Below the pieces are notes generated by a model. That model was given only the letters and a program-made list of their open reading frames with translations. It made no database searches and was not told the origin of the DNA. DNA of 34,598 nt from Catajapyx aquilonaris. Its lineage: Eukaryota. Both the position numbers and the translations under genes were made by a program. The number at the start of each line of letters is the position of its first letter. Within the stretch, counting starts at the first letter, position 1. The stretch is taken from assembly GCA_000934665.2 (NCBI GenBank), contig JYFJ02004120.1:1-34598 (forward strand), written 5' to 3'. Positions 2,578-26,800 of the stretch are shown here, one piece after another.

Positions 2578-2805
2578 AGCATTTGTTTAAACACATGTGG
2601 ATTGGACTCGAGGTTCTGAAGAATCCAATCAACTATACATGGAGTGATGGTACTCGTGTCATGGATGAGGGAAATCTCCCTTGGGGACCCGGTGAACCCA
2701 ACAGTGATGAAGAGAAGTGCGGAGAAATGACCTACACTGGGCACTTGAACGATAACAGTTGCTCCAATGAAATTAACTTTGCCTGTAAATTAACAGACGT
2801 GACAG
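2578..2805 (+). CDS. CTLD C-half exon C1, unit 1 (EPN..LND)
   Basis: ttttcag|AG...ACAG|gtaaat, 228 nt; HMWIGL..WSDG..GEPNSDEEKC..LNDNSC..NFACK. Confidence 0.9.
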
Positions 2806-5800
2806 GTAAATATGGGTGTTAATACTGATATTTTCATGTCCTTAGAAATGTTTTACATGGATTGGTTCCATTTTTAGGAACATGTCCGCGCAACTGGAAC
2901 ACAATAAACACGAATTGCTACTTCTTTTCGACTGTCAAGCTCAGTTGGAATAAGGCGAATGTAACGTGCAAGAGCAAGGAAGAAAGTGCAGATTTGGTCA
3001 GACTCAGTTACGAAGGGGAGCAGTCTGAACTAGCAAGTAAGTCATTCTTAGACAAAGAATTACCTATGGCTTCAACATAAATAAAAAATCACTGTAATTA
3101 ACCTGGACTGTTTTTGAGGTGAAATGGTTGAATCTGTTTGGATGGCCGTAGAAGCTAACATAGAGACAAATGAGTCAATAATTTGAAAATATGTTAAAAC
3201 TTGAACCAACAAAGTCACAAAGGTTTATTACTTTATCCTGAATGGAATATCATTTTGTCCAATATTTATTCTGATGTACTCTCATTGATGTGCCAGAAAA
3301 CTGTCTTTGTCTATTAGAGCAGATTCCACATTGCAGTAACTTACATTAATTTTTGAACATGTGTTGCCAGTGTTCAATATAGTTCGTTAAAATTGCATAT
3401 TTCAATTTTCAGAGCATATGTATGATCACATGTGGATTGGACTCGAGGTTCTGAAGAATATAATCTACTTTGGATGGAGTGATGGTACTCCAGTGGATGA
3501 GGAAAATCTCCATTGGAAAGAGGGTGAACCCAGCCGGAATGGAGAGGAGTGCGTAGAATTATTCTGGAATGGGAACTTGAACGATATTATGTGCAGCATG
3601 GAATTGAACTTTATCTGCAAATTAACAAACCCAGAGGGTAAATATGAGTGTTAATAATGATATTTTCAGGTCCTTAGAAATGTTTTACATGGAATGGTTC
3701 CATTTTTAGGAGCATGTCCGCCTGACTACTGGAAGACTATAAGTACGAGTTGCTACTACTTTTCAACTGTCAAGCGCAATTGGACAGCTGCAATTACTTA
3801 TTGCAAGAGCATGCAAGAAAGTGCAGATTTGGCCAGTTTCCATTACAAAGAAGAGCAGTCTGAACTAAAAAGTAAGTCATTCTTAGACGAAGTACCTATG
3901 GCTTCAACATAAATAAAAAATCACTGTAATTTACCTGGACTCTTTTCCAGGTATAGTGCTTGACACATTAACCACCTCTGAATATTTTTTTCCCGTTGGA
4001 GACGACGCTGCGTTACCTGGCAACCCCTGCCTGCGGGCAAATTCAAACATCAGCATATGGAGAGTGCTGAGTGTTCTTTTCATTGTTGTCACTGTTTACA
4101 AAGAGAGAGTGACGCAGACACCCCAACGACGGGTCTCAGCCTGCTTACACATCAGTAGCAAGGGATACGCAGGGAAAAACGGGAAAATTATGATGTTAGA
4201 AGCAATCCTCTTTGGGAAAAGGTTCCCCGCTGGACTCAAAGAAAGGTTTCCGTCCACAGCACACGTAATTCCATCCGGCATAGGAGAGCGGGGCACACCC
4301 CTTAATGGGGAAGTAGCCTTGGTCTGGGATTTGGGATTTTTGTTCATAACTAGCTAGCCCATGCCTGTAAACATACATTCCATCACTTTGTTGCATCAAA
4401 ATGACATTACTGAATAAATTACGGCACATGTAAAAGTGCCTTCAAAATTGGCGGGAAAAATGCCCCGGCCGGGTGGTGCCAATCGAAAGGGTACACCGAA
4501 ATGCCTGGTTGACTGCGAGATATGAGGAATTTGACTTTGAATTATCCGCGGACACGACGGAAAGCATTCGCAAGGCGGCTGCAGGCCAGCGAGGTGGAGA
4601 AAGGGGGCCCTCATGTGCTGAATCTGGGTGACAGATAATTCCAACCTGGTGGCATCACTGCCATGTACAAAGCGGCTTGAGCGACCTGGAATAAATACGC
4701 GCCCCGGCCGCTATCTTGCTCACGGAATGGGACGGTTGCTAACAACAGCAAAGCATTTTACGACAATGACGGGGCGCGTTCTATAACACCATTTTTGCGT
4801 TCATTTCACTTCGCGTGACGTCAACATTTTCTAGGCTAACAGTGACGTCACCATTAGCCTACATAAAAACCCCAATTACTCCGGAACTGAAACTGATATC
4901 TTAAAACGGAATATGCCAAAAAAATCCAAAAAATATGGGCGAATTTATTATGTAGTTTCCAAAATGAAGGCTACTTCCCCATTAACATCAGGGGTGCACT
5001 ACTTGAAAGTGCGTCAACTGACCGATTCTTTTGGTTCTTGCGTCTTTTCCCTCGTAAGTCGACACCTCTAAGACGAATGGAGACCATCCCCTGTATATCA
5101 GACATCATGTCAGTCTCACCTATAATTGTCTCCAACCCCTGTACAGTATACGTGATGTCATGTTAGTCCTGTACCTCGTGTCATTCGCGTCATATTCGCG
5201 CCAGGAAGAACTTCCTGGCGCGAATATGATTGGCACGTACTCTTATATGGGGAGGCCATTTTGAAATACGACATCTTATGGGGACAAATTACGAGACAGA
5301 CACGGTTCTGACATACCCCCTGCAGCAAGCAATATGGGGGCAACATTGGGGCAACATTGGGGAAGCCGGCGCAACATAGCCCAATATGGCCGATGTTCAG
5401 CCGTGATGTCCATGGGGACAGACACAGCAGAATATCGGGCCAAGATTGCGCCAACATGGAACGCCAGTGCGGGCTAATATGTGAAACATTGGCCGAACAT
5501 GGAAATCCATGTTCGGCCAATATTTGCTGCCTAGGTTGCAAGCCATGATGGGCCCACATAGGCGACATTGGCCCATCAACACCACCACGCCTACATTGCC
5601 ATGATTAAGCCGCCATTGCGGACATTGCGGACATTGCCAAGAAATTTAGCCATCCATTAGCCGATCTTGCGGATACATCGGCTCCACATAGGCAACATTG
5701 GCCAGTTGCAGCCATGTGGGCGTATGACTGGCAGCTTCCCTCGTCCGGATGGCGCTGCCTGTCGGTGTATTGTTGCAAGTCTTCTCCGATTTATCCCACA

Positions 5801-8800
5801 ACAATGCGAATTAATCTTGGCGATTACCCGTGTGTAAAAGTAGCAGGAAACTCCACTGCATGCGGCTCATTTACCCCCGAGGTACTTCATTGTGACATTA
5901 ATTTGCTCGAGTCGTTCGATGGCAAAGCTTATGGTGCGAGCAGGACAATCCGCTGTATGGAAAGGCGGTCATATAATTACTCTATCTCATACGCTTCTCG
6001 GTCTCTGGCTAAATAAAAGATAAAGGCACCCATTGAGTGGTCCTCTCGGACGAACTCGAGCATTGCGCCATTGCCTGCCAATGTTGGGATATATCGAGAA
6101 AAGTTGCAGCGGGCAACATTGCAGATTGCACCAATGACGGTGGCCAATGATGTCCCAATATGTATTTTCCAACATTTTTTGGCGTTTTTTTTCAGTTCAC
6201 GTGGATAGAGGACACGATCTCAAAGGAACCCAAGTGGAGATTTTCAGGGTCTCAACTCTCAAGCTGCTACCTTCAACCTCCGACCTCCGTGTATTTTCCA
6301 ACATTGGCTCCATGTTGGGTTGCCCATGTTGGGGTTGCCCATATTGGGCCACGTCCGCCTCCCAATGTTGGGATATATCGAGAAAAGTTGCAGCGGGCAA
6401 CATTGCACCAATGATGGTGGGCAATGCTGGCCCATTAATGGTTTCCATGTTGTAGCCAATATTGCCCCAATATAGATTGCTGATGGGGACAGGGCATGGT
6501 CTCCATACGTCTTAGGGGTGGTCTAATTATGCGGAAAAGACACAAAAACCGAAAGGATCAGTCAGTTGACGAACTTTCAATTAGCCCACCCCTGATCTTA
6601 ATTGACAACCCCTCCTCATGGGTGGAATATATTTCGTGTGCTGTGGGCGACAACCTTTCTATGGCTATTTTCTCACGAGGCCACCCTGGACGCGCCTAGG
6701 TGGCACCACCACGTCTTTGCAATTCTGCAAGTGGAGCCTTTCGCACGTGGTGGTTGGCAGTGCTGCCCACGCGCAGCCAGAAATGATTGTGGGGGGCAGG
6801 GTGACTTTCGACGCTCCAGCCTCTGCCAGCTGGCTGCATCGCCACGTGTTTGCATTGAATCATATGAAGCCTTTCACAGGAGACCCGACTTTTCTTACGG
6901 CCAGCTGTGCCGACTAATTTATGCGGCAGAGCTGCCATGGTGTGAAAGTAGCCTTTCAGTCCAGTGATAATTTTCCCAAAGTGGATTGCTTCTAACAGCA
7001 TTATTTTCCCTGTTTTTCCTGCATATTCCTGCAGGTACTGTGTAAGCAGGTAGAGACCCGTCGTTGAGTCGTCCGCGTCGCCCTCCATCTCTGTAAACAG
7101 TGGCAACAATAGAAAGGACACTAAGGACTCTCCATATGCTGATGTTCGAATTGTCCCGCCGGCCAAGGTTGCCAAGAAACACAGTGCCGTTGCCAACGGA
7201 AAAAAAACATTCAGCGACAGCTAATGTGTCCAGCACTGTATGTATAACGGTTGAAGCGATTTGGATGGACATAGAAGCTAACGTAGAGACAAATAAGTCA
7301 ATAATTTGCAAATATATTAAAACTTGAACTAACCAATTCACGAAGGTTTATTGCATTATCCTGTAAAGATTATCATTTTGCCCAATATTTATTCTGATGT
7401 ACTCTCATTGATGTGTCAGGAAACTGTCTTTGTCTATTGGAGAAGATTCCGTATTACAATAACTGACATTAATTTTTGAACATGGGTTGCCGGTGTTCAA
7501 TACATTCCTTTGAATTGCATATTTCAATTTTCAGAACATTTGTTTGAACACTTTTGGATTGGACTCGAGGTTCTCAAACCAATCTACTTTGGATGGAGTG
7601 ATGGTACTCCAGTGGATGAGGAAAATCTCCATTGGCTGACGCTTGAACCCAGCGGGGGTGGAGAGGAGTGCGTAGAAATATACAAGAAAGGGGAATTGAA
7701 CGATGCTGGGTGCTCCTTGCCATTGAACTTTATCTGCAAATTAACAAACCCAAACGGTAAATATGAGTGTTAATAATGATATTTTCAGGTCCTTAGAAAT
7801 GTTTTACATGGATTGGTTCCATTTTTAGGAACATGTCCGCCTGACTGGAAGACTATAAGAATGAGTTGCTACTACTTTTCAACTGACAAGCTCAATTGGG
7901 AGGATGCGAAGGAAAGGTGCAAGACCAAGCTGCAAGGAAGTGCAGATTTGGTCAGTTTCCGTTACAAAGAAGAGCAGTCTGAACTAAAAAGTAAGTCATT
8001 CTTAGACAAAGTACCTATGGCTTCAACATAAATAAAAAATCACTGTAATTTACCTGGACTGTTTTTGAGGTGTAGTGCTTGACACATTAGCCACCTCTGA
8101 ATGTTTTCTTCCCCGTTGGAGACGACGCTGCGTTACCTGGCAACCCCTGCCGGCAGGGCAATTCAAACATCAGCATATGGAGGGTGCTTAGTGTTCTTTC
8201 CATTGTCGTCACTGTTTACAAAGAGAGAGTGATGCAGACACCCCAACGACGGGTCCCAGCCTGCTTACACATCAGTAGCAAGGGATACGCAGGGAAAAAC
8301 GGGAAAATTATGATGTTAGAAGCAATCCACTTTGGGAAAAGGTTCCCCGCTGGACTCAAAGAAAGGTTTCCGTCCACAGCACACGTAATTCCATCCGGCA
8401 TAGGAGAGCGGGGCACACCCCTTAATTAACATCAGGGGTGCACTACTTGAAAGTGCGTCAACTGACCGATTCTTTCTTGTTTTTGTGTCTTTTCCCTCGT
8501 AAGTCGACACCTCTAAGACGAATGGAGACCATGCCCTGTATGTCAGACACCGCGTCTGTCTCACCTATTATCGTGTCCAACCTGTGTACAGGGTACGGGA
8601 TATCATGTTAGTCCTATACACTATACACTATACACTATGCAACGCAACATAACTATGCAACACCTCCCCCAGTAGAAACAAACTTATGGTACGTAGTCTT
8701 CCAAAGCTGTGGGAAGCTGCTGGGCCCTCTGCGGTCGTCACTCCGGCCGCGGTGCAGACACGGGACTCCCGTCTGTGAACTCTGGATCTGCCTTTGGTAT

Positions 8801-11800
8801 CCTAGGGCGCATATGGTCCACATGCCGACGCATCTCCTGTCTGGCAGATGTAACAGTACTGTTGGTCCTGGGGCCTTCAACTGCAGACACCACTCCAGGG
8901 ATCCATGACTCCGGTTTCTTGATGAAATCTTGCACGTAAACAGCGTATCCCGGTTCGAAGTGTGGGTCCTGTGACGTTTAAGAATGATACTTTCTCTCTA
9001 GTCTGATGGTCATTTCCTCAGACAAATCCGGATACAATCGGTCGAGGGCAGTGTGAATCCTCCGACCCATTAACATCTCCGATGGCGACCGTCCTGTAGA
9101 TGATGTTGGTGTCGTGTGGTGTGCTAGCAAAAATCGAGCAACTTTCATCTTAATGTCACCTTCACTCATCTTCGCCAGCGCCTCCTTTGTAGTCTGTACC
9201 ATTCTTTCTGCTTGTCCATTAGAAGCTGGATGATACGGTGGCACTAGAATTTGACGAATGACATTCTTCTCTGCAAACTCTTGCATCTCTCGCGAAGCAA
9301 ATGTTGCACCGTTGTCGGTAACCATAACATCGGGCAGACCGTGCGTTGCAAACAGTCTACGTAGCTCAATGATGGTGGATGTAGCGGACATCGAGCGCAT
9401 GGGCAGCACCTCCAGCCACTTGGAGTACACGTCCACTACAATCAAATAAACGACACCGTTGTGTGGTCCCGCGAAGTCCATGTGTAAGCGGGACCATGGT
9501 TTCTTGGGGTACTCCCAAGGATGTACTGGGGCTTTTGGTGGCAAGTGCCGTGTAGCTTGACACTTGTCACAAAGGTGAACGAATTGTTCCACTTCTTTGT
9601 CCAGTGGACGCCACCACAGATAGCTACGTGCTGATGCCTTTATGTGGCTTATGCCCGGGTGTCCCGCATGAAGTAACGTCAATGTGTCCTTCCTGGCTTG
9701 AGCAGGGATGACAACGCGAGTACCCCATAGCACGCACCCATTGTGAACAGACAATTCAGATGACCTTGTCCAGTACGGTAGCAGCTCCAAGTCATCAGGT
9801 TTGCTTGTAGGCCATCCCGAGAGACAGTAGCGCAGAACCTTATTCAAAGTTTGGTCCTTTGTGGTAAGTGCGGCAATGGATTTCGCACCCAGGGGAGACT
9901 GCGGAACGTATTCCAGTAGCAAGACTTCCATAGGGTCAGGTACAGCACAGTCAGGAACCTTCAGAGGTAATCTGCTGAGCCCATCTGCGTGTCCAATCTT
10001 CTCTCCTGGTCGGTGTACTTGCGTATAATTGTAGAACGCCAGCATTAGGATCCAACTCAACATTCTGGGGGAAACTACTGTTGGAATGGGTTTGGCAGAC
10101 TGCAGTATAGTCCCAGCAATGGCTTGTGGTCAGTAACAAGAGTGAACGTACGTCCAGCTAAGTATCTGTGGAAATGTTTCACCCCGTACACCAGTGCGAG
10201 AGCCTCCCTGTCTAACTGAGAAAAGTTTCTTTCACTCCCATGTAATGTGCGGGAAGCAAAAGCAATGGGGGCCTCGTGACCATCTGGAAGTAGGTGAGAA
10301 AGTGCCGACCCTACCCCGTACGGTGAAGCGTCGCAAGCTAGCAGCAAGGGTTTCTTTTCGTCGTAATGCACAAGTACCTCCAGCACTCTTTCCTTTGCCG
10401 CCTCGAACACCTTCTGGTGGTCCTTGGACCAATTCCACTTCGCCTTCTCATCTAGGAGTCGACATAATGGCTCCAACAGGGTAGCTCTATCCTTGAAGAA
10501 TGTCCCGCAAAAATTTAACAGACCCAAGAATGAGCGCAGTTCCTTCACGTTTGTAGGTTAAGGTGCTGCTCTGATGGCTTCTACCTTGTCCTTGGCCTGG
10601 TGCGTCCCAGCAGCATCTATCTGATAGCCCAGGAAACGAACAGTCATCCACTCCAAAAGCACATTTCGTAGCGTTGACCTTCAGTCCAGCATCTTGCAAG
10701 AAGTGTTTGTCCCAGTCCATTTACCACCACCAAAGGCAGCGTAGTTTTCTTCCCCTGGTGCTTTACCTTCATGTCTGCAACACCTTTCATTTGTATAGTG
10801 TTTGATGACCCCACGCCTGTAGCACCACAGAGGCACAGACGTAGGACGTAGTGTGGGTGGATTAACTGGCCACAACCGTTGAAAAGTGTCCGTTCCAATT
10901 ATGGACACATCTGCACCGGAATCGACTATCATGTCGACTTGTCTACCCTGCAGCAACAAACGCGTCTTGCATTTAGGTGTGGTTTGAGTTGTTCCCACCT
11001 GGTAAATATCGTACATCTTTCCATCCACGGAGAGGGTTGGCACTTCATTTGTCTCCACCAAAGTTGGCTTTGATCCTTCTGCATTTGTTGTTCTCTTGGA
11101 CATGGATGAAGCAGTCATCACGTCTTACCAGCAGACTTCTTCTTTAGCAAACAAACTTTCTCCATGTGGCCCAGTTTCTTGCAGAAGTTGCATGTAATGC
11201 CCTTCCTTTTGATGTGGCCTTGATGATTGCCTTGTGATGTGGGCTGCCGCAGCGGTAGCACACAATCTTGGTATAGCTTCGACCCTGCACACCTCTTTGA
11301 CACGCAGAGAAGCAGAATCCTGCTCTGCTGTTTCTACAGCAGCAGCAATTTTGTGTGCCATGTCGAAAGTGAGAGTAGTGTCCTCCAGCAACTTACGCTG
11401 AATCTTCTCATCTGCAATACCCACCACAAGCTGATCTCTCAGTCGATCACTAATTATGTCCGAGAAGTTGCAGTGTTCCGTCAGTCTACGTAAGTCGTTC
11501 ACATAATCACTAACAGATTCTCCTAGCTGCTGAAGTCGACGGTGAAACTTGCATCGCTGCACAATCTCTGACGGTGTGGGGTTGAAGTGGACTCCTACTG
11601 CAGCTCTGACATCATTGTAAGACATGTCAGACAGTTTCTTCGGAGCTACCACTGCACGTATGGTATGGAAAGTACAGAAAGTACAGAACTTGTCAGTGTC
11701 GTGCTTACGTTGGGGCGTAACAAGCTACGGCCTTATTTTTATTGTTGCTACGCTCAAGAGCACATCCTGGAGGCCCGGCGCAGTGGCCACATGACAGCAG

Positions 11801-14800
11801 GATTCTGTGGGGTGATCATGGGTCACACTACTTACGCCCTCATGTTCACATCTACCCCTTGGCACATGGACGCTGAGGGATATGTGAATATCCTTGAGAA
11901 TGACCTGCTCCCAGAACTAGAGGAATGATATCCAGATGAGCAAAAGATCCCATTTGTTCATGACAAGGCCGGGATCCAGGCTGACGACGTGTTTCCTTGA
12001 TGACCAGAGCAAGATTTCCCCGATGAAGTGGCCGTCCTACTCCCCTCACCTCAACCCCATAGAAAACCTTTGGGGTATGATGGTCAGGGAGTGGGACAAT
12101 CGCAATGAGCGCCGGGATGACCTGCTCCGACAGCATTGCAGGGAGGTCTGGGAATCCGTCGGCAACTGCCCTTGGATCCTGGGCAACTTCTTGTCCAGCA
12201 TGCCTCAGAGGCTGGCTGATGTGGTTACTAGTAAAGGAGGTCACAGCAAATATTAAAACTTCCTTGTTCTTGTTCGTTGATGTTCCCAGTGTTGTTTCCT
12301 TTTGCGTGTAGATTACCAATATGGATTGTTATTTGTTTCCAAAGATTTCTTAACTTTATTGTTACATTATTGTTACAAAAGTATGATTGTGGTTATATCA
12401 AGGCTGACCCACCAATTATTTTGTAGTGGCCATAAAATTTCATGGATTCTATTTGGAACCTTCGTCAGTGTCATTTTCATATTATTATAATATTCTTTTA
12501 TTTTTATTTTTTATTATGTACCCCGTTGTGGGCCTATATTATTAATATTCAAATATATGTTAATTATCATGAATGGCCCTTTGAGTTGTTTATTATTATA
12601 GTTTTCAATTTGTTTTTGGCTATGCCAATCTTGACGCAGCCCGCCAGCGCCGCCGCCGCTTCCACAGTGCATCGGCATTTGTAGATAAATAATGCCAGGG
12701 TGCAAATCGTCTGTAGAACATGCTCGGAAAATCGTGCATCAATGAACTGCGAACCCTGGATGACCCTGGGATTAAAATAAGTGGAAAGAGGTAGCCAGAC
12801 CCAAACAGAACATCAGGCCACCCATATTTGTAACAAAAATGCTTCTAAATGTCCCCAGAGTAGAAAGGAGTCCTTTCGGAACATCATTTCCCAATGATCC
12901 TCCATGAGAAGCGCTGGTATATCAGCCCCGATACACCAGTGGCACATCCAGTGGATGGACCCACTTCCAGCATGCTACTGTGACCGAGCGGTGTAATAAG
13001 GATACGGAAGTAAGAGACTAATGCTTCAATTTAATGGTCAAATGTGTACAGGACAGTAAAGTGAGAGAGAGAAGGGACGACCAATCCCCCAGGATATTCT
13101 CCTGGGGAAAAGGCCTCGAACAGAGGGTTGTACCGGTATATATACAGGCCAGGAGGCGCAAAGCCTGCTGGGAGAAATGGATAACAGAATCAACATGATG
13201 TAATGGGCAACGTATAAATGGATGTATCCAGAAAACGGTGACATACCCCAACGCCAAGCTTGAAACATAAACAATGAAAAATGGTCAGGGTGTTGAAACA
13301 TGTGCCAAACACGGAGACAAAAAAATCCACAAAGGAATCAAAAAGGGCCCGGTCAAAGTTCACAGACGGCCATAAAAAAAAAAAGAAATCTCCGTCAACA
13401 AAAAAAGGACACTAAAACTTGATAATGAGGGATGATGATGATGATGATGATGATTCCAGATGTCACTCAGAAGGCAGCAGTCAATTTAGGAAACCGAAGA
13501 AGGGGCTCCAAATGAACGTGTGGTCCAGGAACAGGTGTCCCTCTGCTTCCTCTTCTTGTAGGAGCGACGATGACGTCCATAGTCTCGACCCGATGGCGGG
13601 AGTTTCATTTCCTCGAACAGTTGAAAAGGCATGAAGAAGGTGTGTAGCCTCGGGAAGTCCGCCTCAGAGTAGATGATTCCGGAAAGGTACAGGCATTGGA
13701 AATCAAGATGACACCCCAGGGCAGCCATGAAGTCTGCAGCCAGGATCACAGGAAGTACGCCTCTACGCACCACGAGGAACGTCTTCTGAAATGTTATGTT
13801 CCCCATGGTGAGGGTGAGCGTTGTCCTCCCATAAGGTCGAACAAGGTGAACGTCGGCCATGCGCAACTTCGTTGGAGGGGCTGGTTCCAACTGAGGTCGG
13901 GAGTGACGAGGAATGGAATCCCACGCAGCTATGGAGACCATGGAAGTTACGGCTCCGCTGTCCAGTAGAGCGGTATGTGGAATTCCATGAACAAGTACGG
14001 CGATGGTGGCAGCAGTAATCATCGACGTATCTGGTTCTTCGATTCGGAAGGAGGCCATCCTGACGACTTGCACGTAATGCAGCTCGTAGGCGTAAGGATG
14101 CTTCACGTAAGGGTGCGGCTCACGCTGCTACTCGTACTTCTGCTCGTACTGTTGTTCGTACTTCTTCTGCTGCTCAGAGGAAAATGCGTAAGTTAGAGTG
14201 GCACAAGAAGGTTCAGAAATGAACAACACATGGCTGGCGGGTCTTGATTATATTCTGGGAGAGTGCAATGCATGATGGTTGGAACGTTCTTCAATATTGC
14301 GTCACACACACTGGGAGGTCAGTCCAGTCGTATGGAACACTTGACCCATGGGGTCTCCACAGCGCACTACTACGGGGTAGTCCAAAATCCTCCACCCCCT
14401 CCCACCTTACAAGGGGGCCAGGAACAATGGCACCAGAAAAAAATGTGGATCCCCAATTTACATGAAAAACATCCTCAGCACCTGGTTCATACAACCAGGA
14501 ATATGGGGGTTGTCGAATTCTCACGACACCCAATTATGACACACACACATGCACACCCACACACAGCCAATGTAGGTGGTGTAATACTTCACGGTGCGGA
14601 AGGCTGTCTTCATCCTCACGGGTAGGGTCTACAATTAGACGGAAAATGGCAAGTCTCTTGTCCGACCCACCGTGATGGAAACTTCCACAACGATATATAG
14701 GCAAAAGGGGCACATGCCGTAGTAGAATTTAGTCACATGGGCCTCCACACTGCCTCACCACCCCGGCCCCTGGGTGACGTATTCCGTACACACCAACGGA

Positions 14801-17800
14801 ATCGGGTGGCCCATAACTCCCTCTCTCTCAAATGGCAATGGATGTTAATGACTGTCCACAAAGGTAAAGTAGGGTAGGTAGGGATAAAAGGGGAAAAACA
14901 CGGACCATAAACTCGCATGAGAAGGTATTCCTTCAACAATGGCTGCTCAAATGGCGCGCAAAACGACTAATGGCCCGAAAGGGGAGAACTAACATTTGCA
15001 AGAAACATAATGCCAAAAGTGCATACAGGTTCATGCGGGATGTCAACAGTGACCAGTGTTGGATGCAACTTACAGGGTCATGTGACAGAGGAACAGGGAC
15101 TGGTGTGAGACTAAAACACCAAAGCGATCCAAAAAAAGAAAAGGAGGGAGAAACTCCCACGGGACAGGGAAAATCGAAGAAGTGATAATATGACCGTGGA
15201 CATGCTTACAAAGCAAACCCCCCTGTAGGATCAAGTAGGGTAGGACAGAGCACAAAGCCCCAAAGGGTACAACACGTGACCAGACTAATTAAAAGCAAGA
15301 GGCGTTGAAAACAAACAAGCCCGTAATTCAAATCGCACTTCCGACGCCACGTATGTGACCGAGCGGTGTAATAAGGATACGGAAGTAAGAGACTAATGCT
15401 TCAATTTAATGGTCAAATGTGTACAGGACAGTAAAGTGAGAGAGAGAAGGGACGACCAATCCCCCAGGATATTCTCCTGGGGAAAAGGCCTCGAACAGAG
15501 GGTTGTACCGGTATATATACAGGCCAGGAGGCGCAAAGCCTGCTGGGAGAAATGGATAACAGAATCAACATGATGTAATGGGCAACGTATAAATGGATGT
15601 ATCCAGAAAACGGTGACACTACCATATCGAGCGAGTGTGGCCACCATAGTGTGTTGATCCATCTTGAATTAGGCAAACAAAGCTGTTTTGTCACCTGTTG
15701 GTCCCCTATACAAATATTTTGGTTAACTACTAGACGTTTTCCGTCATGTAATTAGGAAATGTGTGGCGCAAAATGTGAAGTTCGTTAGGTCTATAAAAAC
15801 TAGTCAATGATGACTGCAGTGTTGTTGATGCCAGCCTGCCTGTCAATCTAGAACTTATAAAGTATTATTTTATTGCAGTGTGGATGAAATTGCTGATAAA
15901 CGAGTGGGTTCTATTTCATAAATTACGCAGACTCTATAAACTAGAAATAAGTTGCACGAATAAGTAGCGGAGACAGCTCTCAAGCGAGCCAGACTGTACG
16001 GCCACGTGTCCATGGGACCGCGGCCGCAGCTGCGCCCGGAGAGCTGAGTGTTGTGGATTCTGGAACATCCCCAAATAAACATATCCGTAACCTGGCAGAG
16101 CCCAGGATTACCAACACATAAACACAAAAACACATCAACAATCGCGACATTACTTTTGCGATTAATAGTACTCTCATTGATGTGTCAGAAAACTGTCTTT
16201 GTCTCGTACAGAACATTTCATATTACAGTAACTTACGTTAATTTTGGAACAAGTGTTTCCTGTGTTCAATACATTCCTTTGAATTGCATAATTCAATTTT
16301 CAGAGCATTTGTTTGAACACTTTTGGATTGGACTCGAGGTTCTGAAACCTTTCAAGTATGGATGGAGTGATGGTACTCAACTGGATGAGGAAAATCTCCA
16401 TTGGTATCCCGGTCAACCCAGCGGATATGGAAAGGAGTGCGTAGAAGTATTGGACAATGGGGAATTGTACGATGCTATGTGCAACTCGGAATTTAACTTC
16501 ATCTGCAAATTAACAAACCCAAAGGGTAAATATGAGTGTTAATAATGACATTTTCATGTCCGCAGAAATGTCTTACATGGATTGGTTCTATTTTTAGGAG
16601 CATGTCTGCCTGAATGGAAGACTATAAATATGAGTTGCTACTACTTTTCAACTGACAAGCGCAATTGGACGGATGCGAAGGAAAGGTGCAAGATCTTGAA
16701 TGAAAGAGCGGATTTGGTCAGTTTCAGTTACAAAGGGGAGCAGGCTGAGATAGCAAGTAAGTCATTCTTAGACAAAGAATTATGCATGACTTCAACGTAA
16801 ATAAAAAATTACTGCAATTAACCTGGACTCTTTTTCAGGTATAATGGCCGAAGCAATTTGGATGGACATAGAAGTTAACGTAGAGACAAATAAGTCCATA
16901 ATTTGCAAATATATTAAAACTGTCGAACCTACGCAGGTACGGGTTCGAACTTTAAGTTAGGTAGAGGTATTTGCGTCGGATATCAGCGGAAATAAATAAT
17001 GTCGGGGAATGATTTCAAATAACCTATTTAATGCAGCCACGTAAGGCTCTTTGTTATATCATCACTTTACAGTTCACTATTACACACATAATAAGCTTCA
17101 TACATTCATACATAGTTCACAAGTCCAATAATACTTCTTTTCCACACATTATGACATCACCAACAACTTCTACCACTCTGCTCATTACAAAATGGAACGA
17201 CTACATTTACTTATACATCCGTATACCATAATCATGCACCATACACTTCAACCTATGGTTGCATGAAAAGTAAAATAAATGCAACTGGAAATTTTGCCAC
17301 ATGGCTGGCTTACCTGACTAGTTGTCTGATACTGCTTCTCTGATGCTTCTACTGCTTCTCTCTTACTCTGCGTCTCTTACTGACTGATTCTATGACCCGG
17401 ACCTGCTTTTATAGTGCCCGGTTTGGGGTGGGGTTTGTACCACGTGAGTGTCATTTTGGGGGGTTTTCCCACTAATATTGTCCTGCTTCCTGCATCCTCA
17501 GATGGACTTGTTATATTGATGCGGTACGTTTCTTGCACCTCACACCGCGCTCGGACTCTAATGGATCTTTTGAATGGCTTTCTGGCACCAGGGAGTCTGT
17601 TGCTCGTGCTGCCTAGCCCACTCTCTAGCTGTTTATTTAGACGCGTGTTTTCAATAAACTGTGATAATTTGGGGTTCTTAAGTGTGTGACAAATGCCAAT
17701 TAATATCGTAATTAAGTCTCTTGTTATGCCGTAGGCGGCATGACAAAACTTGAACTAGCAAAGTCACAAAGGTTTATCGCATTATCCTGTATGGAATATC

Positions 17801-20800
17801 ATTTTGTCCAATATTTATTCTGATGTACTCTCATTGATGTGTCAGAAACTGTCGTTGTCTATTAGAGAAGATTCCATGTTACAGTAACTTACATTAATTT
17901 TGGAACATGTGATTCCGGTGTTCAATACATTCCTTTGAATTGCATATTTCAATTTTCAGAGCATTTGTATGGTCGCATGTGGATTGGACTCAAGTTTCTG
18001 AGGAAACCAATCAAGTATGGATGGACTGATGGTACTCACGTGGATGAGCGAAATCTCCGTTGGAAATGGGGGGAACCCAGCGGATATGGAGAGAACTGCA
18101 TAGAAATGCACAAAATTGGGCAAATAAGAACTGCTCAGTGCAACAAGGAAGTGAACTTTATTTGCAAATTAACGAACCCAAACGGTAAATATGAGTGTTA
18201 ATAATGATATTTTCAGGTCCTTAGAAATGTTTTACATGGATTGGTTCCATTTTTAGGAGCATGTCCGACTGACTGGAAGACTCTAAATACGAGTTGCTAC
18301 TATTTTTCAACTGACAAGCGCAGTTGGGAGGATGCGAAGGAAAGGTGCAAGATCTTGAATGAAAGGGCGGATTTGGTCAGTTTACATCCCAGAGTGGAGT
18401 GGAATGAAACAACTAGTAAGTGATTCTTAGACAATGAATTACGTACGACTTCAACATAAATAAAAAATTACTGAAATTTACATGGACTGTTTTTCAGCCG
18501 TTTTGATGGACATAGAAGCTAATGTAGAGACAAATGAGTCAGTAATTTGCAAATATATATTAAAACTTGAACCAACAAAGTCACAGAGGTTTATTGCATT
18601 ATCCTCTATGGTATATCATTTTGTCCCATATTGATTCTGTTGTATTCTCATTGATGTGTCAGAAATACTGTCTTTGTCTATAAAGGTCTGAACTCATATC
18701 GACTTGAAACTACGACTTGTGCGTAAAAGTCATACTTTTGCGTCTGCGTCTCCATGGCCTTGTTTGTTTGGGAAAGAGGGCTGTTTCCATATCGACTTGT
18801 GCGTCAAAGTCGAACTTATGAGTGTTCGAATCCATCCCGCTTGCCGGCTGCGCATGCACATGCAATTCCATCCCCGAGGGCCCATGCGCAGTATGCCGTG
18901 CAGAACGATAATCGAACAGTGCCAACAATCGAATGTCAACAATTACATCGACCACGTTCCAGTTTCGTACCTCTAGCGGCATGATGTCAAAATGGCGGAG
19001 AAATGCTATCATTCGCGGTAGTCACGTTTTACCTGCCCCGACCTGACCATTGTGCATGGGCTCTGCTTGTCTGCATCTGGTGGTCTGGCCCCCGAGCAGA
19101 TCATCCTGAGATTTTTTTAAAAGTGAGGAGTGACCTGCCCTTCCCTTTCCGTTTGTCGGAAGTCAATTGGACTCCTGGCAGCCTGCTGCTGCTTGAGCGA
19201 ATTTTGAGTTGATTGCGACTTGCTCAATGCTCATTACTACCTGCCCAATTACCAAGGAGATTTCTAACTTCACGTTTAAAGATTGCCAACCCCTCATCAA
19301 ACCATGGCTGCTTCGACTTTCAGACATGATCATCGTTCATAGTTTTCGGCTTGAAAATGCACCCAAACTCTTCAAGCAGGTCACGCGCCAACAACTGAAA
19401 TTTTGAGGAGTGAAGAAGGATTACTCTTTGGCTATTCGCTTTTCATTTGATTGTTTTTTTAAATGTTTAATGTAACTCTCACAGGTAAGGACACTATTAT
19501 GTAACACTTTTCTTGTCCATGGAATTTCATCGTTATTTCCATGTTCCTTAGGTCACTCGTAACTCATAATTATGAGCATTCTTTTTGTGTGAACTTAATT
19601 TTTGAACTCGGGGTAGTCAAACAACCTTATTTCTCGAAATAGTTGGGCCATTCTGAATCAAGAGAGCGCAGATATGTTGCTCGACCATCTCGTATTTCGC
19701 AGGAAAAAAAATCACGGCAGTACAGAACTATGACATAACGCTGCATATCAAGTTTCAGCCATATCGAATGGTTGCATCGAATTGTTGCATATCGATCGAC
19801 CTGGGGCCCACACGCACCAGGGTGCCAACAGTTGCGCGCGGCGAATGGCAACAACGGAAAACGACTGTCAACTAATGTCAACAAGAGGCCTACACGGACG
19901 CAGAAACGGCGTTCCAACGCACGCACAAGTCGTAGTTTCAAGTCGATATGAGTTTAGACCTTTAGAGAAGATTCCATTTTAGAGTACTTTAATTTTTGAC
20001 CATGTGTTCCTGGTGTTCAATACATTCCGTTGAATTGCATATTTCAATTTTCAGAGCATATGACCAGTGATACCATGTGGATTGGACTCTTTATCCGGCC
20101 AAAGCCACTCTATTATGAGTGGAGTGATACTACTCCAGCGATAGAGAGTCATTTCACTTGGCACGGTAACACACCCACGTATAATGGCGGGTATTGCGTA
20201 GAACTTATCCAAATTATCACTACCGGTAACGATAAAGGGAGAGTGCGCTACACTAAGTGCACCGAGACACATAACTTTGCCTGCAAATTACCAAAGGTGG
20301 AAGGTAAATATTGGTGTTAATAATGATGTTCTCATGTCCCTAGAAATGTTTTACATGGATTGGTTCCATTTTTAGGAGAATGTCTGCCTGACTGGTGGAG
20401 GCGAGGAACGAGTTGCTACTATTTTTCGACTGTCAAACTCAGTTGGACAAAGGCGGAGAAGTATTGCCGCGAGGAAAAAGGGGCACATTTGGCCAGCTTC
20501 CATGACGAAGGGGATCAGTCTGCGCTAGCAGGTAAGTCATTCTCAGACAAAGAATTACATACGACTTCAACATAAATAAATAATTACTGTAAAAAACCTG
20601 GAACGTTTTTCAGGTATAATGGTTGCATCTGTTTGGATGGACATAGAAGCTAACGTAGAGACTAATAAGTCAATAATTTGCAAATATATTAAAACTTGAA
20701 CTAGCAAAGTCACAAAGGTTTATTACATTATCCTGTATGGAATATCATTTTGTCCAATATTTATTCTGATGTACTCTCATTGACATGTCAGAAAACTGTG

Positions 20801-23800
20801 TTTGTCTATTAGAGATTATTCCATATTACAGTAATTTAATTTTAGAAGAAGTGTTTCCGCTGTTCAATACATTCCGTTGAATTTATTGCATGTTTCAATT
20901 TTTAGAGCATATGGTTTGGCGCGTGTGGATTGGACTCCATGTGCTGGACAAGCCAATCAAATATAGATGGACTGATTCTACTCAAGTGGAAGAGAGTCAT
21001 CTCAAATGGGAGAAGGACGAAGAACCCAAGTATGCTAAAGGGTATTGCGTAGAACTAACTGAAGGAAGTGGGAGATTGAACTACACTAAATGCACCGAGA
21101 CATATAACTTTGCCTGCGAACTACCAAACGTGACTGGTAAATATTGGTGTTATTAATGATGTTTTCAGGTCCTTAGAAATGTTTTACATGGATTTGTTCC
21201 AGTTTCACAAGCATGTCCGCGTGACTGGAGGAGGATAGAAAAGAATTGCTACTACTTTTCGACTGTCAAGCTCAGTTGGACAAAGGCGGAGGAGTATTGC
21301 CGCCAGGAAAAAGGGGCAGATTTGGTCCATTTTCGTTACAAAGAGCAGCAGTCTGAACTAGCAAGTAAGTCATTCTTAGACAAAGAATTACGTACGACTT
21401 CAACATAAATAAAAAATTACTGTAATTTACCTGGACTGTTTTTCAGGTAAAACGGTTGAACCCGATTGGATGGCCATAGAAGCTAACTAAGAGACAGATA
21501 ACTCAATAATTTGCAAATATATTAAAACTTGAACTAACAAAGTCGCAAAGGTTTATTTATTGCTTTATCCTGTATGGAATATAATTTGGTCCAATATTTA
21601 TTCTGATGTACTCTCATTGATGTAGACAACTGTCTATTACAGAAGATTCCATATTACAGCACTTAAATTTTGTCAACAAGTGTTTCCGCTGTTCAATACA
21701 TTCCCTTGAATTTATTGCATGTTTCAATATTTTCAGAGCGTTTGTATTATCGCACGTGGATTGGACTGCGTGCCCTGGACAAGCCAATCAAATATAGATG
21801 GACTGATTCTACTAAAGTGGAAGAGAGTCATCTCACTTGGTTGAAGGCCGAACCCACGTATGCTAAAGGGTATTGCGTAGAACTAATCGATGTTGAAGAA
21901 GATGATATTGGGAAATTGCAGTACAGTAGTTGCGACAAGGAACGTGCCTTTGCCTGCGAATTACCAAACGTGACAGGTACAATTAATGGTGTTAATAATG
22001 ATGTTTCATGTCCTTAGAAATGTTTTTTTTTTTTTTTTAATTTACCCCGTGAATGACCTGTTTGGTCTTTAGGGGGTGGTGGATTACCACCATTGGTATT
22101 TTTGGAGCGTGTTAAGATGAAATCTTATTAGTGTACTCCAGGGTTGGTAGGAGGGGATGTGCAAAGTGCATGTGCGCTGTCGTTAATTGGTCATTTTGTG
22201 AACTCCCCCGGGTGGCTTAGTCTATCGGAAATTGCCACCCGAAACGAAGTCAGAGATGGCCCAACTCTGCACGAAAGAAGGTGGGAACCCCGGGTGGGGA
22301 TTGAACCCGGGACCTTAACTTCCGTGGGCGCGCGCGTTACCGCGGCGCCACTCCGTCTCCCTGTGTCCTTAGAAATGTTTTACATGGATTGGTTCATTTT
22401 TAGGAGAATGTCTGCTTGACTGGTGGAGGATAAAAACGAGTTGCTACTATTTTTCGATTGACAAGCGCAGTTGGAAAATGGCGGAGGAGTATTGCCGCAG
22501 GGAAAAAGGGGCAGATTTGGTCCATTTCAGTTACAAAGGGGAGCAGCTTGCGCTATCAAGTAAGTCATTCTTAGACAAAGAATTACGTATGACTTCTACA
22601 TAAATAAAAAATTACTGTAATTTTTCTGGACTCTTTTTCAGGTAAAATTATTGAAAGCATTTGGATGGACATAGAAGCTAGCATAGAGACAAATAAGTCA
22701 ATAATTTTAAAATATATTAAAACTTGAACTAACAAAGTCAAGATGGTTTATTGCATTATCCTGTACGGAATATAATCTTGTCCAATATTTATTTAGATGT
22801 GCTAGGGGCCTTCATAAAGTTAGTACCTTTGGGTTGAAGGAAATGAGAGAAACGGTTCAAATTTCGCACAAGTATTAGTCTTCTCTCTATATTAACCCTG
22901 CAAAGCTACACATTTTCCCCAGTGATTCAGAGCTGTATCATTGACACATTATTGTAGAAGTCGACACTTTGTGCTTGAAAATTGTTTTCAACCTCTGTGA
23001 TCACCCCCTAGCGGCTTTCAAAATGCTTCCCACGCAGTGGTTGCTTCAAGTGGCAAAAGAGGATGAAGTTTCCAGGGGCGAGGCCCGGGAATATGTCTGA
23101 TGGGACAGAATGTTGTACCCCTAACGGACCAGCAAGTGCCACAGTTGCATGGGCAGAATGAGCAGATGTGTTGTCGTGCACACCTTGCGTCACCATTCCT
23201 CGTCTGTTCCGCTTGATCTTGTGGTGAAGCTTTTACAGGAGATCTTGATAATGCTGCCCGCGATGGTCTGACCTTATCATGTCTAATGAGTCATGATAAA
23301 TCCACATGAGTTTTTAAAAAAAACACTGAGCATAACCTCCCCAGATGATAGCTGCATTCTGACCTTCTTCGGGGGTGGAGAGTTTTGAGTGTTTCCATTG
23401 CTTGTGCTGTAATTTGGTCTCTAGGTTGTAGTGGTACACGCAACATTCGTCCATGATGATGAGTCAGTTGAAAAAATAGCCATCTTCAGAGAGGAACATC
23501 GCCAACATATTCTTAGCCTTAGTACCGAGGTTGACAACTTTTTTCAAGAGCAAAGTGTCGACTTTGGCATTAATGGTGTTCCACAAGTCGTGCATTGCTG
23601 GGGAAAGTGTGTGGCTTTGCAGGGTTAATATAGAGAGAAGGACATTCAACCCAAGGGGCGAACTTTATGAACGCCCCTCATACTCTCATTGATGTGTCAG
23701 AAAACTGTCTTTGTCTATTAGCGAAGATTCCATATCACAGTAATTTAATTTTTCAACAAGTGTTTCCGCTGTTCAATACATTCCTTTGAATTTATTGCAT

Positions 23801-26800
23801 GTTTCAATTTTCAGAGCGTTTGTATTGGCGCACGTGGATTGGACTGTATATCCTGGACAAGCCAATCAAATATAATTGGACTGATTCTACTCACGTGGAA
23901 GAGAGTCATCTCACTTGGCTCTATGAGGTCGAACCCACGTTTGCTAAAGGGTATTGCGTAGAACTAACTGAAGGAAGTGGGAGATTGAACTACACTAAAT
24001 GCACCGAGACACATAACTTTGCCTGCGAAGTACCAAACGTGACTGGTAAATATTGGTGTTATTAATGATGTTTTCAGGTCCTTAGAAATGTTTTACATGG
24101 ATTTGTTCCAGTTTCACAAGCATGTCCACCTGACTGGAGGTGGATAGAAACGAATTGCTACTACTTTTCGACTGTCAAGCTCAGTTGGATAGAGGCGGAG
24201 AAGTATTGCCGCCAGGAAAAAGGGGCAGATTTGGTCCATTTCCGTTCCAAAGAGCAGCAGTCTGAACTAGCAAGTAAGTCATTCTTAGACAAAGAATTAC
24301 GTACGACTTCAACATAAATAAAAAATTACTGAAATTTACCAGGACTGTTTTCCAGGTAAAACTGTTGAAAGCATTTGGATGGACATAAAAGCTAGCATAG
24401 AGACAAATAAGTCAATAATGTGCAAACACAGGGTGATTCTCTCGAATCGAAACCCAAACATTCCCCAATAACTTTTTAACTATGGTATGGTGCCCGATGA
24501 AAATTGACTTGTACTTACCTTGCACCATGCCAAACAAGGTCTGACTAAAGAATATACCAAAAGTGGTCCCCTCCAGAATCCAAGAATTTTTTAATGCGAG
24601 TCTGCATATTGCGGAAGATTCCTGCAGATGTGGACACTGACTTGTCAGGAGCGAAACACTTGCTTGGCGAGAGGGCATTTCAAGACCACTGGAACAGTCC
24701 AATTCGTTTTGGGGGATGATGTTTTGTTTTGTTTTTTTCTCGCGGAGTTTGTTGAAGGGCTGTGTATACAAAAATAACCCTCGAACAATTGATGCTCTCA
24801 ACAACAGCTTGCGGCGTCCTGTGGGCAGGAGATTAATGCCATCCCTGCCGCCACATCTGCAGGAGTCTTCGGCAATATGCAGACTTGCATTAAAAAATTA
24901 TTTGATGCTGGAGGGGACCACTTTTGGTATGTTCTTTAGTCAGACCTTGTTTGACATGGTACAAGGTAAGTACATGTCAATTTCATCGGGAACCATACCA
25001 TAGTTAAAAAGTTATTGAGGAATGTTTGGGTTGCCATTCTGGAGAATCACCCTGCATATTAAAACTTAAACTAGCAAAGTCACAAAGGTTTATCGCATTA
25101 TCCTGTATGGAATATCATTTGGTCCAATATTTATTCTGATGTACTCTCATTGATGTGTCAGAAAACTGTCGTTGTCTAATAGAGAAGATTCCACATTACA
25201 GCACTTTAATTTTTGAACAAATGTTACCGCTGTTCAATACATTCCGTTGAATTTATTCCATATTTCAATTTCCAGCGCGTTTGTATTGGCACATGTGGAT
25301 TGGACTCTATATCCTGGACAAGCCAATCAAATATATATGGACTGATACTACTAATCCAGTGGAAGAGACTCATGTCACTTGGGATGGAGTTGCACCCACG
25401 TATGCTGAAGGGAATTGCGTGGAACTAGTCCCACATGAAACTGACGAAAAGGGGAGATTGAAGTACACTAACTGCAATGAGCGATTTAACTTTGCCTGCG
25501 AACTACCAAACGTGACTGGTAAATATTGGTGTTAATAATGATGTTTTCAGGTCCTTAGAAATGTATTACATGGATTGGTTCCAGTTCCTCAAACATGTCT
25601 GCCTGACTGGAGAAGGATTGGAACGAGTTGCTACTACTTTTCGACCGACCCGGACACGTGGACAAACGCGAAGGAGTATTGCCTGGGAAAAAGTGCAGCT
25701 ATGGTCAATTTCACTGGAAAAGGGCAGCAGTCTGAACTAGCAAGTAAGTCATTCTTAGACAAAGAATTTTGTATGACTTCAACGTAAATTAAAAATTACT
25801 GAAATTTACCTGGACTGTTTTTCAGGTAAAATGGTTGAATCCGTTTGCTAACATAGAAACAAATAAGTCAATAATTTGCAAATATATTAAAACTTGAACG
25901 AACCAATTCTTTATCGCATTGTCTTGTGTAGAATATCATTTTGCCCAATATTTATTCTGATGTACTCTCATTGATGTGTCAGAAAACTGTCGTTGTCCAT
26001 TAGAGAAGATTCCATATTACAGCACTTTAATTTTTGAACATGTGTTTTTCTGGTGTTCCGTACATTCCGTTCAATTCCATATTTTAATTTTCAGAGCATT
26101 TGTTTGATCACATGTGGATTGGGCTCTATATGCTGGACAGCCCAATCAAATATAATTGGACTGATTCTACTGTAGTGGAAGAGAGTCATCTCACTTTTGA
26201 TCCGCCTGTAACCATGTATGATGAAGACAAGTGCATAGAACTAGCGATAACAGGGAATTTGATGTACACTGAATGCAGCAATGAATTTAACTTTGCCTGC
26301 AAATTAACAACCGTGACTGGTAAGTGTTGGTGTTAATAATGATATTTTCGGGTCCGTAGTAGAAATGTTTTACATGGATTGGTTACATTTTTAGGAGCAT
26401 GTCCGCCCGACTGGAAGAGGAGACTATTCAGTTGCTTCTACTTTTCAAATGTCAAGCTCAATTGGACAGCTTCGATTAGTTATTGCAAGGGCTTGCACGA
26501 AAATGCAGATTTGGCCAGTTTCAGTGATGAATTGGATCAGTCTTATGTTGCAAGTAAGTCATTCTTGGACAAAGACTTACGTAAATAAACCGTGTAAAAT
26601 TATTGTAATTAACTTGACTATTTTTCAGGTGATATGGTTGATGGCGTTTGGATAGGCCTTCATTACAATTCTTCTCGTGATGAATGGATTTGGTCGGACG
26701 GCAGTACAAATGACTACCACATGTGGAATACAAAGGAGCCCAATTGCTTGGACACCGACAAGTGTGCCAAGTTACTTTTCGAAAAAGTGTGGAGTGACCT

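Follow-up and report, generated by a model that had tools for sequence, protein, structure and literature searches.

A chimeric C2/N1 relic exon in a tandem C-type lectin-domain array of Catajapyx aquilonaris: a probable record of half-domain shuffling

The stretch of DNA analysed here, contig JYFJ02004120.1 of the Catajapyx aquilonaris assembly GCA_000934665.2 (positions 1 to 34,598 of the forward strand; these 34,598 nucleotides are referred to as the window), is occupied by a plus-strand animal gene for a protein with multiple C-type lectin domains (CTLDs). Each CTLD is split between an N-half and a C-half exon by an intron positioned just before the WIGL strand, and four exon types are present: N1, C1, N2, and C2. 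Ten sites in this gene, each preceded by an N2-type exon and followed by a C1-type exon, hold or once held a relic of about 51 nucleotides (nt) that is a chimera of the head of a C2 exon and the tail of an N1 exon. The explanation that we favor, and to which we attach considerable confidence, is that a C2 exon was fused to an N1 exon, that the fused exon lost its splice donor, and that a unit encoding a hybrid domain was then amplified. Half-domain recombination had been proposed in a sequence-only reading of the window, and it is supported overall by the chimera, the donor change common to the relics, their lesions, and the exon types.

The exon order is C1-(N2-relic-C1)x10-N2-C2 at 2578-26847, N1-C1-N2-C2 at 28477-29659, and N1-C1-N2-[42-nt micro-exon]-C1-N2-C2 at 31227-33200; the second of these is the intact module that the sequence-only reading had recognized, and its exons are as described there. 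The basic array unit measures about 835 nt without insertions. The mapped features are as follows.

2578..26847 (+): tandem array (exon map, splice sites, blastn of parental introns)
2578..2805 (+): C-half CTLD exon of type C1, unit 1 (exon map; Pfam Lectin_C)
2878..3036 (+): N2-type exon, unit 1 (exon map)
3119..3169 (+): relic 1, 51 nt, open frame, donor atgagt
3413..3637 (+): C1-type exon, unit 2 (exon map)
3710..3871 (+): N2-type exon, unit 2 (exon map)
3951..3953 (+): relic 2, 5' stub (gta) right after the acceptor, severed from the body by an inserted element
3954..7238 (no strand): inserted element of 3.3 kb with long terminal inverted repeats
7242..7292 (+): relic 2, body, 51 nt, open frame, donor ataagt
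7535..7756 (+): C1-type exon, unit 3 (exon map)
7829..7990 (+): N2-type exon, unit 3 (exon map)
8070..8072 (+): relic 3, 5' stub (gtg), followed by the inverted-repeat element; body lost
8073..16167 (no strand): unit 3 insertion block, comprising the left portion of the inverted-repeat element and a degraded Ty3/gypsy element (- strand)
16304..16525 (+): C1-type exon, unit 4 (exon map)
16598..16756 (+): N2-type exon, unit 4 (exon map)
16839..16889 (+): relic 4, 51 nt, open frame, donor ataagt
17960..18184 (+): C1-type exon, unit 5 (exon map)
18257..18415 (+): N2-type exon, unit 5 (exon map)
18498..18533 (+): relic 5, 36 nt (first 15 nt deleted), donor atgagt
20055..20303 (+): C1-type exon, unit 6 (exon map)
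20376..20531 (+): N2-type exon, unit 6 (exon map)
20614..20664 (+): relic 6, 51 nt, open frame, donor ataagt
20906..21136 (+): C1-type exon, unit 7 (exon map)
21209..21364 (+): N2-type exon, unit 7 (old acceptor tag now cac; new in-frame ccag 6 nt upstream)
21447..21497 (+): relic 7, 51 nt, in-frame TAA at 21488, donor ataact
21737..21976 (+): C1-type exon, unit 8 (exon map)
22404..22559 (+): N2-type exon, unit 8 (exon map)
22642..22692 (+): relic 8, 51 nt, open frame, donor ataagt
23815..24045 (+): C1-type exon, unit 9 (exon map)
24118..24273 (+): N2-type exon, unit 9 (same acceptor shift as unit 7)
24356..24406 (+): relic 9, 51 nt, open frame, donor ataagt
25276..25518 (+): C1-type exon, unit 10 (exon map)
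25591..25743 (+): N2-type exon, unit 10 (same acceptor shift as unit 7)
25826..25862 (+): relic 10, 37 nt (14-nt internal frameshifting deletion), donor ataagt
26095..26319 (+): C1-type exon, unit 11, last of the array (exon map)
26395..26553 (+): N2-type exon, unit 11 (exon map)
26629..26847 (+): complete C2 exon closing the array
28477..28644 (+): intact module, N1 exon, with its last 25 nt a parental sequence of the relic 3' half
28882..29139 (+): intact module, C1 exon
29212..29367 (+): intact module, N2 exon
29450..29659 (+): intact module, C2 exon, with its first 25 nt a parental sequence of the relic 5' half
31227..31394 (+): N1 exon, third module
31629..31850 (+): C1 exon, third module, first copy
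31926..32087 (+): N2 exon, third module, first copy
32172..32213 (+): 42-nt micro-exon, open phase 1-1 frame, acceptor cag, donor gtaagt
32458..32688 (+): C1-type exon, third module, second copy (WTGF)
32755..32910 (+): N2 exon, third module, second copy
32994..33200 (+): C2 exon, third module

The chimeric make-up of the relic is supported by anchored, ungapped counts on the six full-length relics, a procedure that leaves no alignment freedom. Relic nucleotides 1-25 match the starts of the three C2 exons at 14-20 of 25 positions (mean 17.3, n = 18), and nucleotides 27-51 match the ends of the two N1 exons at 14-21 of 25 positions (mean 17.6, n = 12), whereas the reciprocal control comparisons of the two halves yielded 6.1 and 6.9 of 25, which is the level expected by chance. 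With a chance match rate of 0.254, 17 matches in 25 positions correspond to a binomial P of about 1e-5. The 5' half of the relic matches C1 starts at 11.5/25 and its 3' half matches N2 ends at 7.8/25. In the multiple alignment, the relic is flanked by the N2-C2 intron on its upstream side and by the N1-C1 intron on its downstream side. The positions and the length of about 51 nt given for units 1 to 10 by the sequence-only reading, its derivation of the 5' part from a C2 start and of the 3' part from an N1 end, and its identification of the downstream intron all hold.

The position of the breakpoint was obtained by blastn with the parental intron-plus-exon sequences, the comparison with both parents that the earlier reading had envisaged for this purpose. 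These alignments enter the relics up to nucleotide 25 of the C2 exon and from nucleotide -25 of the N1 exon, and no further. Since the C2-derived and N1-derived alignments abut within 1-3 nt (in relic 6 the former ends at 20638 and the latter starts at 20640), the breakpoint is fixed to within about 3 nt. It falls into the codon after the Trp of WIGL and leaves the frame intact (tgg at/g gac ata, with the slash marking the junction), which in protein terms reads ...SVW-M-DIEANVET.

All nine visible relics carry an AT donor (ataagt in six of them, atgagt in two, and ataact in one), compared with GT in 33 of 33 real exons; the parental N1 donors read gtaagt, and the G-to-A change is common to every visible copy. 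The mutation of the donor from GT to AT was thus correctly called from the sequence at the outset, and so were the signs of decay, as the in-frame stop near 21488, the deletions at 18498 and 25826, and the transposable element at 3954 are all present. The lesions consist of the TAA in unit 7, the 14-nt frameshifting deletion in unit 10, the loss of the first 15 nt of the relic in unit 5, and the 3.3-kb inverted-repeat element, which sits right after the third relic base in unit 2. The arms of this element (3952-4109 and 7083-7240; about 158 nt) are 80% complementary and have TA on both sides; the two open reading frames (ORFs) of the element that were scanned contain no Pfam domain. Unit 3 possesses the same element at the same site (from 8073), together with the loss of the relic body and about 107 nt of the next intron; homology to the parental introns resumes at 16168, as judged by blastn. 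Because the element occupies the same site in both units, its insertion is older than the duplication that separated units 2 and 3.

Trees of the N and C halves, which had been suggested as a check on the hybrid nature of the unit, separate the exon types cleanly. In the maximum-likelihood tree of 17 C halves, the C1 (14) and C2 (3) exons are split with support of 100/98, and in the tree of 16 N halves the N1 (2) and N2 (14) exons are split with support of 99/99. Every array exon types as N2 or C1, with the exception of the C2 exon that closes the array (which ends N2-C2: 26395-26553, 26629-26847), and the typing supports the hybrid N2+C1 unit. The proposed amplification of about 10-fold is matched by the ten relic units that we see, but this figure is a lower bound, since the array may continue upstream of position 1, the gene itself appearing to extend beyond the window on both sides. 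Neighboring units cluster in the trees (2+3, 4+5, 7+9, 6+8): the N2 tree pairs units 6 and 8 as well as units 7 and 9 (20055-24406), and units 7 and 9 are close in the C1 tree too. This clustering suggests growth by local unequal crossing-over, including one duplication of a two-unit block (6-7/8-9).

The identity of the exons as CTLD halves is well defined. C1 and C2 exons match the Pfam profile PF00059 (Lectin_C) at profile positions 40-107 with 36.4-39 bits (cut-off 22.6), the C1 exon of unit 1 covering positions 40-106 of 107 (E=9.7e-09), and an N2 exon matches positions 2-31 with 24.3 bits against the same cut-off; the sole Pfam match of an N1 exon is to the related UL45 profile, under its cut-off. 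A WIGL-type motif, W[IT]G[LFY], is found in 17/17 C halves. A framework of six cysteines is the mark of a long-form CTLD; with three cysteines in each of 14 N2 halves and three in each of 14 C1 halves, the hybrid N2+C1 domain therefore contains the full set. Calcium ions and sugars are bound by C-type lectins through an EPN or QPD motif plus a WND motif. Among the C1 exons of the array, EPN...ND is kept by unit 1 alone, and the first C1 exon of the third module (module 3a in our C1 alignment) has QPN; the remaining C1 exons read EPS, QPS, EPT, EPK, TPT, APT, VTM or KPD at the EPN position, and the ND position is altered. Most units are thus CTLDs in which the classical Ca2+-dependent binding of sugars has probably been lost.

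The closest solved structures belong to the mannose-receptor family (MRC2, PLA2R, DEC-205, and MRC1), with 5ao5 (MRC2) matched at E=3.6e-07 by a C1 exon and 7qsr (PLA2R) at E=2.5e-16 by an N2 exon. Among named homologues, the best matches (34-41% identity) come from a hemichordate, a sea urchin, and a horseshoe crab and are annotated as macrophage mannose receptor-like. A word-indexed search of longer proteins with a C1 exon returned three matches at this level of identity and no orthologue, and an exhaustive search of representative proteins with another C1 exon returned 127 matches at E<=1e-3, none of them above 42% identity. We also attempted to type 15 distant relatives as A, B or hybrid with one hidden Markov model for each half type (N1, C1, N2, and C2), but the scores lay too close together for this. 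One apparent relative with six N2-C1 pairs (P0004) turned out on inspection to be an ordinary, unrelated CTLD repeat. A Pfam scan of 15 of the 26 large ORFs (>=120 amino acids) of the window revealed no domain other than the CTLD.

The real exons show every sign of integrity. All 33 mapped exons have a length divisible by three and are of phase 1-1, and an AG acceptor is present in 30 of them. In the remaining three (the N2 exons of units 7, 9, and 10), the acceptor tag has been lost (it now reads cac or ctc), and a new in-frame ccag is found 6 nt upstream (21203-21208, 24112-24117, and 25585-25590); the shifted acceptor keeps the frame and would add two codons, and this compensated shift is common to one clade. 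All 28 C1 and N2 exons are open. When each exon was given as many random substitutions as its distance from the consensus (mean distance 0.207), a mean of 4.9 of the 28 stayed open, and all 28 did so in none of 2000 simulations. All 15 gap runs in the exon alignments, compared with 7 of 39 in the introns, have a length divisible by three. As far as can be judged from sequence, the real exons appear to be functional and to have been kept open by selection.

Across 2578-33200 (14 copies), the introns are more conserved than the exons. The mean pairwise nucleotide identity is 0.668 for C1 and 0.718 for N2 exons, and amounts to 0.879 for the C1-N2 intron, 0.855 for the N2-C2-type intron, and 0.802 for the 3' part of the N1-C1-type intron. 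An Rfam scan of the window, carried out in search of a cause for the conserved introns, gave no matches. By the Nei-Gojobori method, the proportion of non-synonymous differences (pN) exceeds that of synonymous differences (pS) in 78 of 91 pairs of C1 exons (median dN/dS, the ratio of the two substitution rates, 1.5) and in 48 of 91 pairs of N2 exons (median 1.01), with pairs that are not independent and no modeling of gene conversion. This pattern suggests diversifying selection on the half of the domain that carries the binding loops. An 'accelerated evolution' has been described for the phospholipase A2 (PLA2) and C-type lectin-like genes of snake venoms (PMC7285919, citing Nakashima 1993 and Ogawa 2005). 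Those genes resemble the present one in that introns are more conserved than coding exons and non-synonymous change equals or exceeds synonymous change; the comparison there is between genes for venom isoforms, whereas here it is between the tandem domains of a single gene.

We propose the following history. The older building block would have encoded two domains, one of type A (N1+C1) and one of type B (N2+C2). A single non-homologous rearrangement would then have joined a C2 exon, about 25 nt past its start, to an N1 exon, about 25 nt before its end, either as a tandem duplication of C1-N2 in one module or as a deletion between two adjacent modules; both yield N1-C1-N2-J-C1-N2-C2, where J is the fused exon, and structure alone cannot separate them. 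J, a 51-nt in-frame junction exon, would presumably have been spliced in at first, and N2 would thereby have come to lie upstream of C1; from the architecture of CTLDs we assume that its inclusion would have duplicated helix alpha-2. The G-to-A change at donor position +1 would then have disabled J, with N2 now spliced straight to C1, phase 1 to phase 1, to give a hybrid N2+C1 lectin domain. Homologous unequal crossing-over would subsequently have amplified the N2-J-C1 unit to at least ten copies, followed by local duplications (units 2/3, units 4/5, and the two-unit block 6-7/8-9), while J gathered its lesions and the real exons stayed open and diversified.

Several observations weigh against this history. 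The ancestral state is reconstructed from paralogues inside the window, no orthologue or close homologue having been found in the searches described above, and we infer the skipping of the relic in the mRNA from its donor alone. The decay of the relics is modest, with 6 of 7 full-length bodies still open, and an acceptor AG is still present at 10 of 10 relic sites, though parted from the body by the element in units 2 and 3. Nor do the relics clearly evolve at the rate of introns: in six matched units, their mean pairwise identity is 0.80, compared with 0.78 for the N2 exons, 0.895 for the intron upstream of the relic, and 0.757 for the 50 nt downstream. As relic identity lies between that of the intron segments and is similar to that of N2, we did not use rate as evidence for non-coding status. 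The tree of the N1-C1-type intron is star-like, and the fused copies are neither united nor separated in it (p=0.39 in the approximately unbiased test). Finally, the AT donor could have spread by gene conversion rather than predating the amplification.

A second junction between an N2 exon and a C1-type exon, beyond the range of the original observation, bears on the number of fusions. The 42-nt micro-exon of the third module has intact AG/GT sites. The intron before it is of the N2-C2 type and the one after it of the N1-C1 type, with the resemblance reaching to the exon borders; we regard the micro-exon, from these flanks and its 5' part, as probably a living, fast-evolving descendant of the same junction. 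The fusion of C2 to N1 stands, but with this second junction the earlier claim that it happened in one event is not settled. Separate C2/N1 rearrangements for the array relic and the micro-exon, a rather doubtful though by no means negligible possibility, would account for the difference in length (42 versus 51 nt), for an intron tree that does not unite the micro-exon with the array copies, for the lack of a significant alignment of its interior to the relics (56 to 686 of 2000 shuffles score equally well), and for a 3' part that matches N1 ends at just 5-6 of 17 anchored positions, which is not significant. A common origin is, however, favored by the identical pair of flanking intron types up to the exon borders and by the nature of both sequences as short in-frame phase 1-1 remnants of similar size. 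The first 25 nt of the micro-exon, moreover, match the 5' halves of the relics at 12-13/25 (P of about 0.004-0.012 each, the comparisons not being independent), compared with just 5-7/25 for C1 starts, and rapid divergence is to be expected in this gene if the micro-exon is coding. Tentatively, and with somewhat less than even confidence, we suggest that both states of one junction exon have been kept: the micro-exon would be the still-spliced, fast-evolving form, which may insert about 14 residues into helix alpha-2 of a single hybrid lectin domain, the silenced form would be represented by the ten copies in the array, and loss of the insert would have preceded the burst of amplification and diversification. 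If this is true, the gene offers a natural before-and-after series: the half-domain chimera would at first have worked with the junction insert in place, and the insert would have been lost before this immune-type lectin receptor underwent its amplification and came under diversifying selection (dN/dS above 1, with exons less conserved than introns).

Three further explanations concern the present state of the relic and of the array. The array as a whole might be a dead pseudogene, with relic and hybrid domains devoid of present function; relaxed constraint could partly mimic the median dN/dS values of 1.01 and 1.5, and the many transposon insertions in introns and the loss of canonical EPN/WND-type residues in most units would fit as well. 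We nevertheless judge this to be highly improbable, given 28 open exons where 4.9 are expected, exon indels that are without exception multiples of three, an intact cysteine and WIGL framework, a compensating acceptor shift, and no insertion within an exon. Still less credence is due to the relic as an alternative coding micro-exon that is used through its non-canonical AT donor, or through RNA editing that makes the A read as G, and that adds a 17-residue insert to the alpha-2 region of some domains. Its frame-preserving length, the mostly open frames, and an acceptor that is strong in most copies would permit such a use, but an AT donor combined with an AG acceptor corresponds neither to a U12-type AT-AC intron nor to the usual U2 intron, and the acceptors downstream of the uniformly AT donors are ordinary AG; inclusion would, furthermore, bring in a stop in unit 7 and a frameshift in unit 10, and the acceptor is parted from the body in unit 2 and the body is missing in unit 3. 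Hardly any weight attaches to the idea that the retained acceptor followed by GT (cag/GTAAAA in units 7-10, cag/GTATAA in units 4 and 6) is a recursive splice site or decoy for which the relic is kept as a means of splicing control. AG/GT is found at 9 of 10 relic sites, and the third base, G as in C2, has become A in the bodies of six units, which brings it nearer to the gene's own donors gtaaat and gtaagt. Recursive splicing is, however, known mainly from very long introns, and the composite intron is just about 375 nt long; AG/GT was inherited from the start of the C2 exon (GTGAAA), and the part of the relic in question was lost from unit 5 with the 15-nt deletion.

With C2/N1 fusion, donor loss, and amplification as the favored explanation, the individual processes are textbook ones (pseudo-exons created by donor mutation, intragenic duplication, unequal crossing-over). 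Members of the mannose-receptor family (MRC1, MRC2/Endo180, PLA2R, DEC-205/Ly75, and FcRY) likewise possess strings of tandem long-form CTLDs; they are built from N-terminal ricin-type and fibronectin type II domains, 8-10 CTLDs in vertebrates, a transmembrane segment, and a tail. The window shows neither a cysteine-rich ricin-type nor a fibronectin type II domain, and neither a transmembrane segment nor a cytoplasmic tail, but both gene ends appear to be outside it. The gene studied here differs in that it encodes at least 16 CTLDs, most domains are hybrids of two paralogous types, and EPN...ND is confined to unit 1. The pseudo-exons of glycophorin B and E were silenced by mutation of the donor site. 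They resemble the relic as exon-derived sequence left in a gene with a mutated 5' splice site, the neighboring exons being joined in frame; here, in contrast, the silenced exon is a chimera of two exons, was copied about ten times with its unit, and is presumed from its donor to be skipped. Haptoglobin Hp2 and the kringle IV arrays of apolipoprotein(a) arose by intragenic tandem duplication and subsequent unequal crossing-over. As in these systems, an illegitimate duplication would have created the homology through which unequal exchange expanded an array of domain exons, but the breakpoints here lie inside two exons for halves of different domains, the unit encodes a new hybrid domain, and the junction survives as sequence in each unit. 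Full-text searches of one open-access library turned up no paper that describes a chimeric junction pseudo-exon within an array of CTLDs.

Tandem domain arrays are common and, to our knowledge, the founding rearrangement is almost never still readable. In this array the junction has been kept in the units, so that the breakpoints (to about 3 nt), the silencing donor mutation, and the order of later events can be read, namely the transposon insertion before the unit 2/3 split and the two-unit block duplication. The data further suggest that a C-type lectin fold can be built from an N half and a C half that stem from different paralogues, and that selection kept at least ten such hybrids open while the binding-loop half diversified. 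We see the value of the locus in an unusually clear example and a testable model of half-domain shuffling, and not in a new kind of system.

The window contains several mobile elements and other repeats in addition to the inverted-repeat element. The degraded Ty3/gypsy-type fragment inside unit 3 (8978-12328, - strand) comprises an integrase (8978-10129), an RNase H (10075-10557), and a weak protease match. The best matches of the integrase have at most 57% identity and are distributed among many phyla of animals. A second such fragment upstream of unit 1 (1-1308, - strand), with reverse transcriptase and RNase H, interrupts an intron and conceals what precedes the array; a 120-nt tandem repeat (1989-2215; 1.9 copies, 91% identity) lies between this fragment and unit 1. 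Two direct repeats of 265 nt (12979-13243 and 15354-15618), 2375 nt apart and 100% identical, could be the long terminal repeats of a very recent small element. Five more insertions of 0.35-1.3 kb are scattered in unit introns, none of them exonic (16922-17744, 18682-19961, 22801-23680, 24426-25055, and the C1-N2 intron of unit 8, 21977-22403). Downstream of the third module, a cysteine-rich open frame of 446 codons on the plus strand (33260-34597), for which we found no Pfam family and no usable Atlas match, displays a recurring x-E-x-P-C pattern and continues beyond the 3' end of the window; the G+C content here is 50%, and the minus strand is open too.

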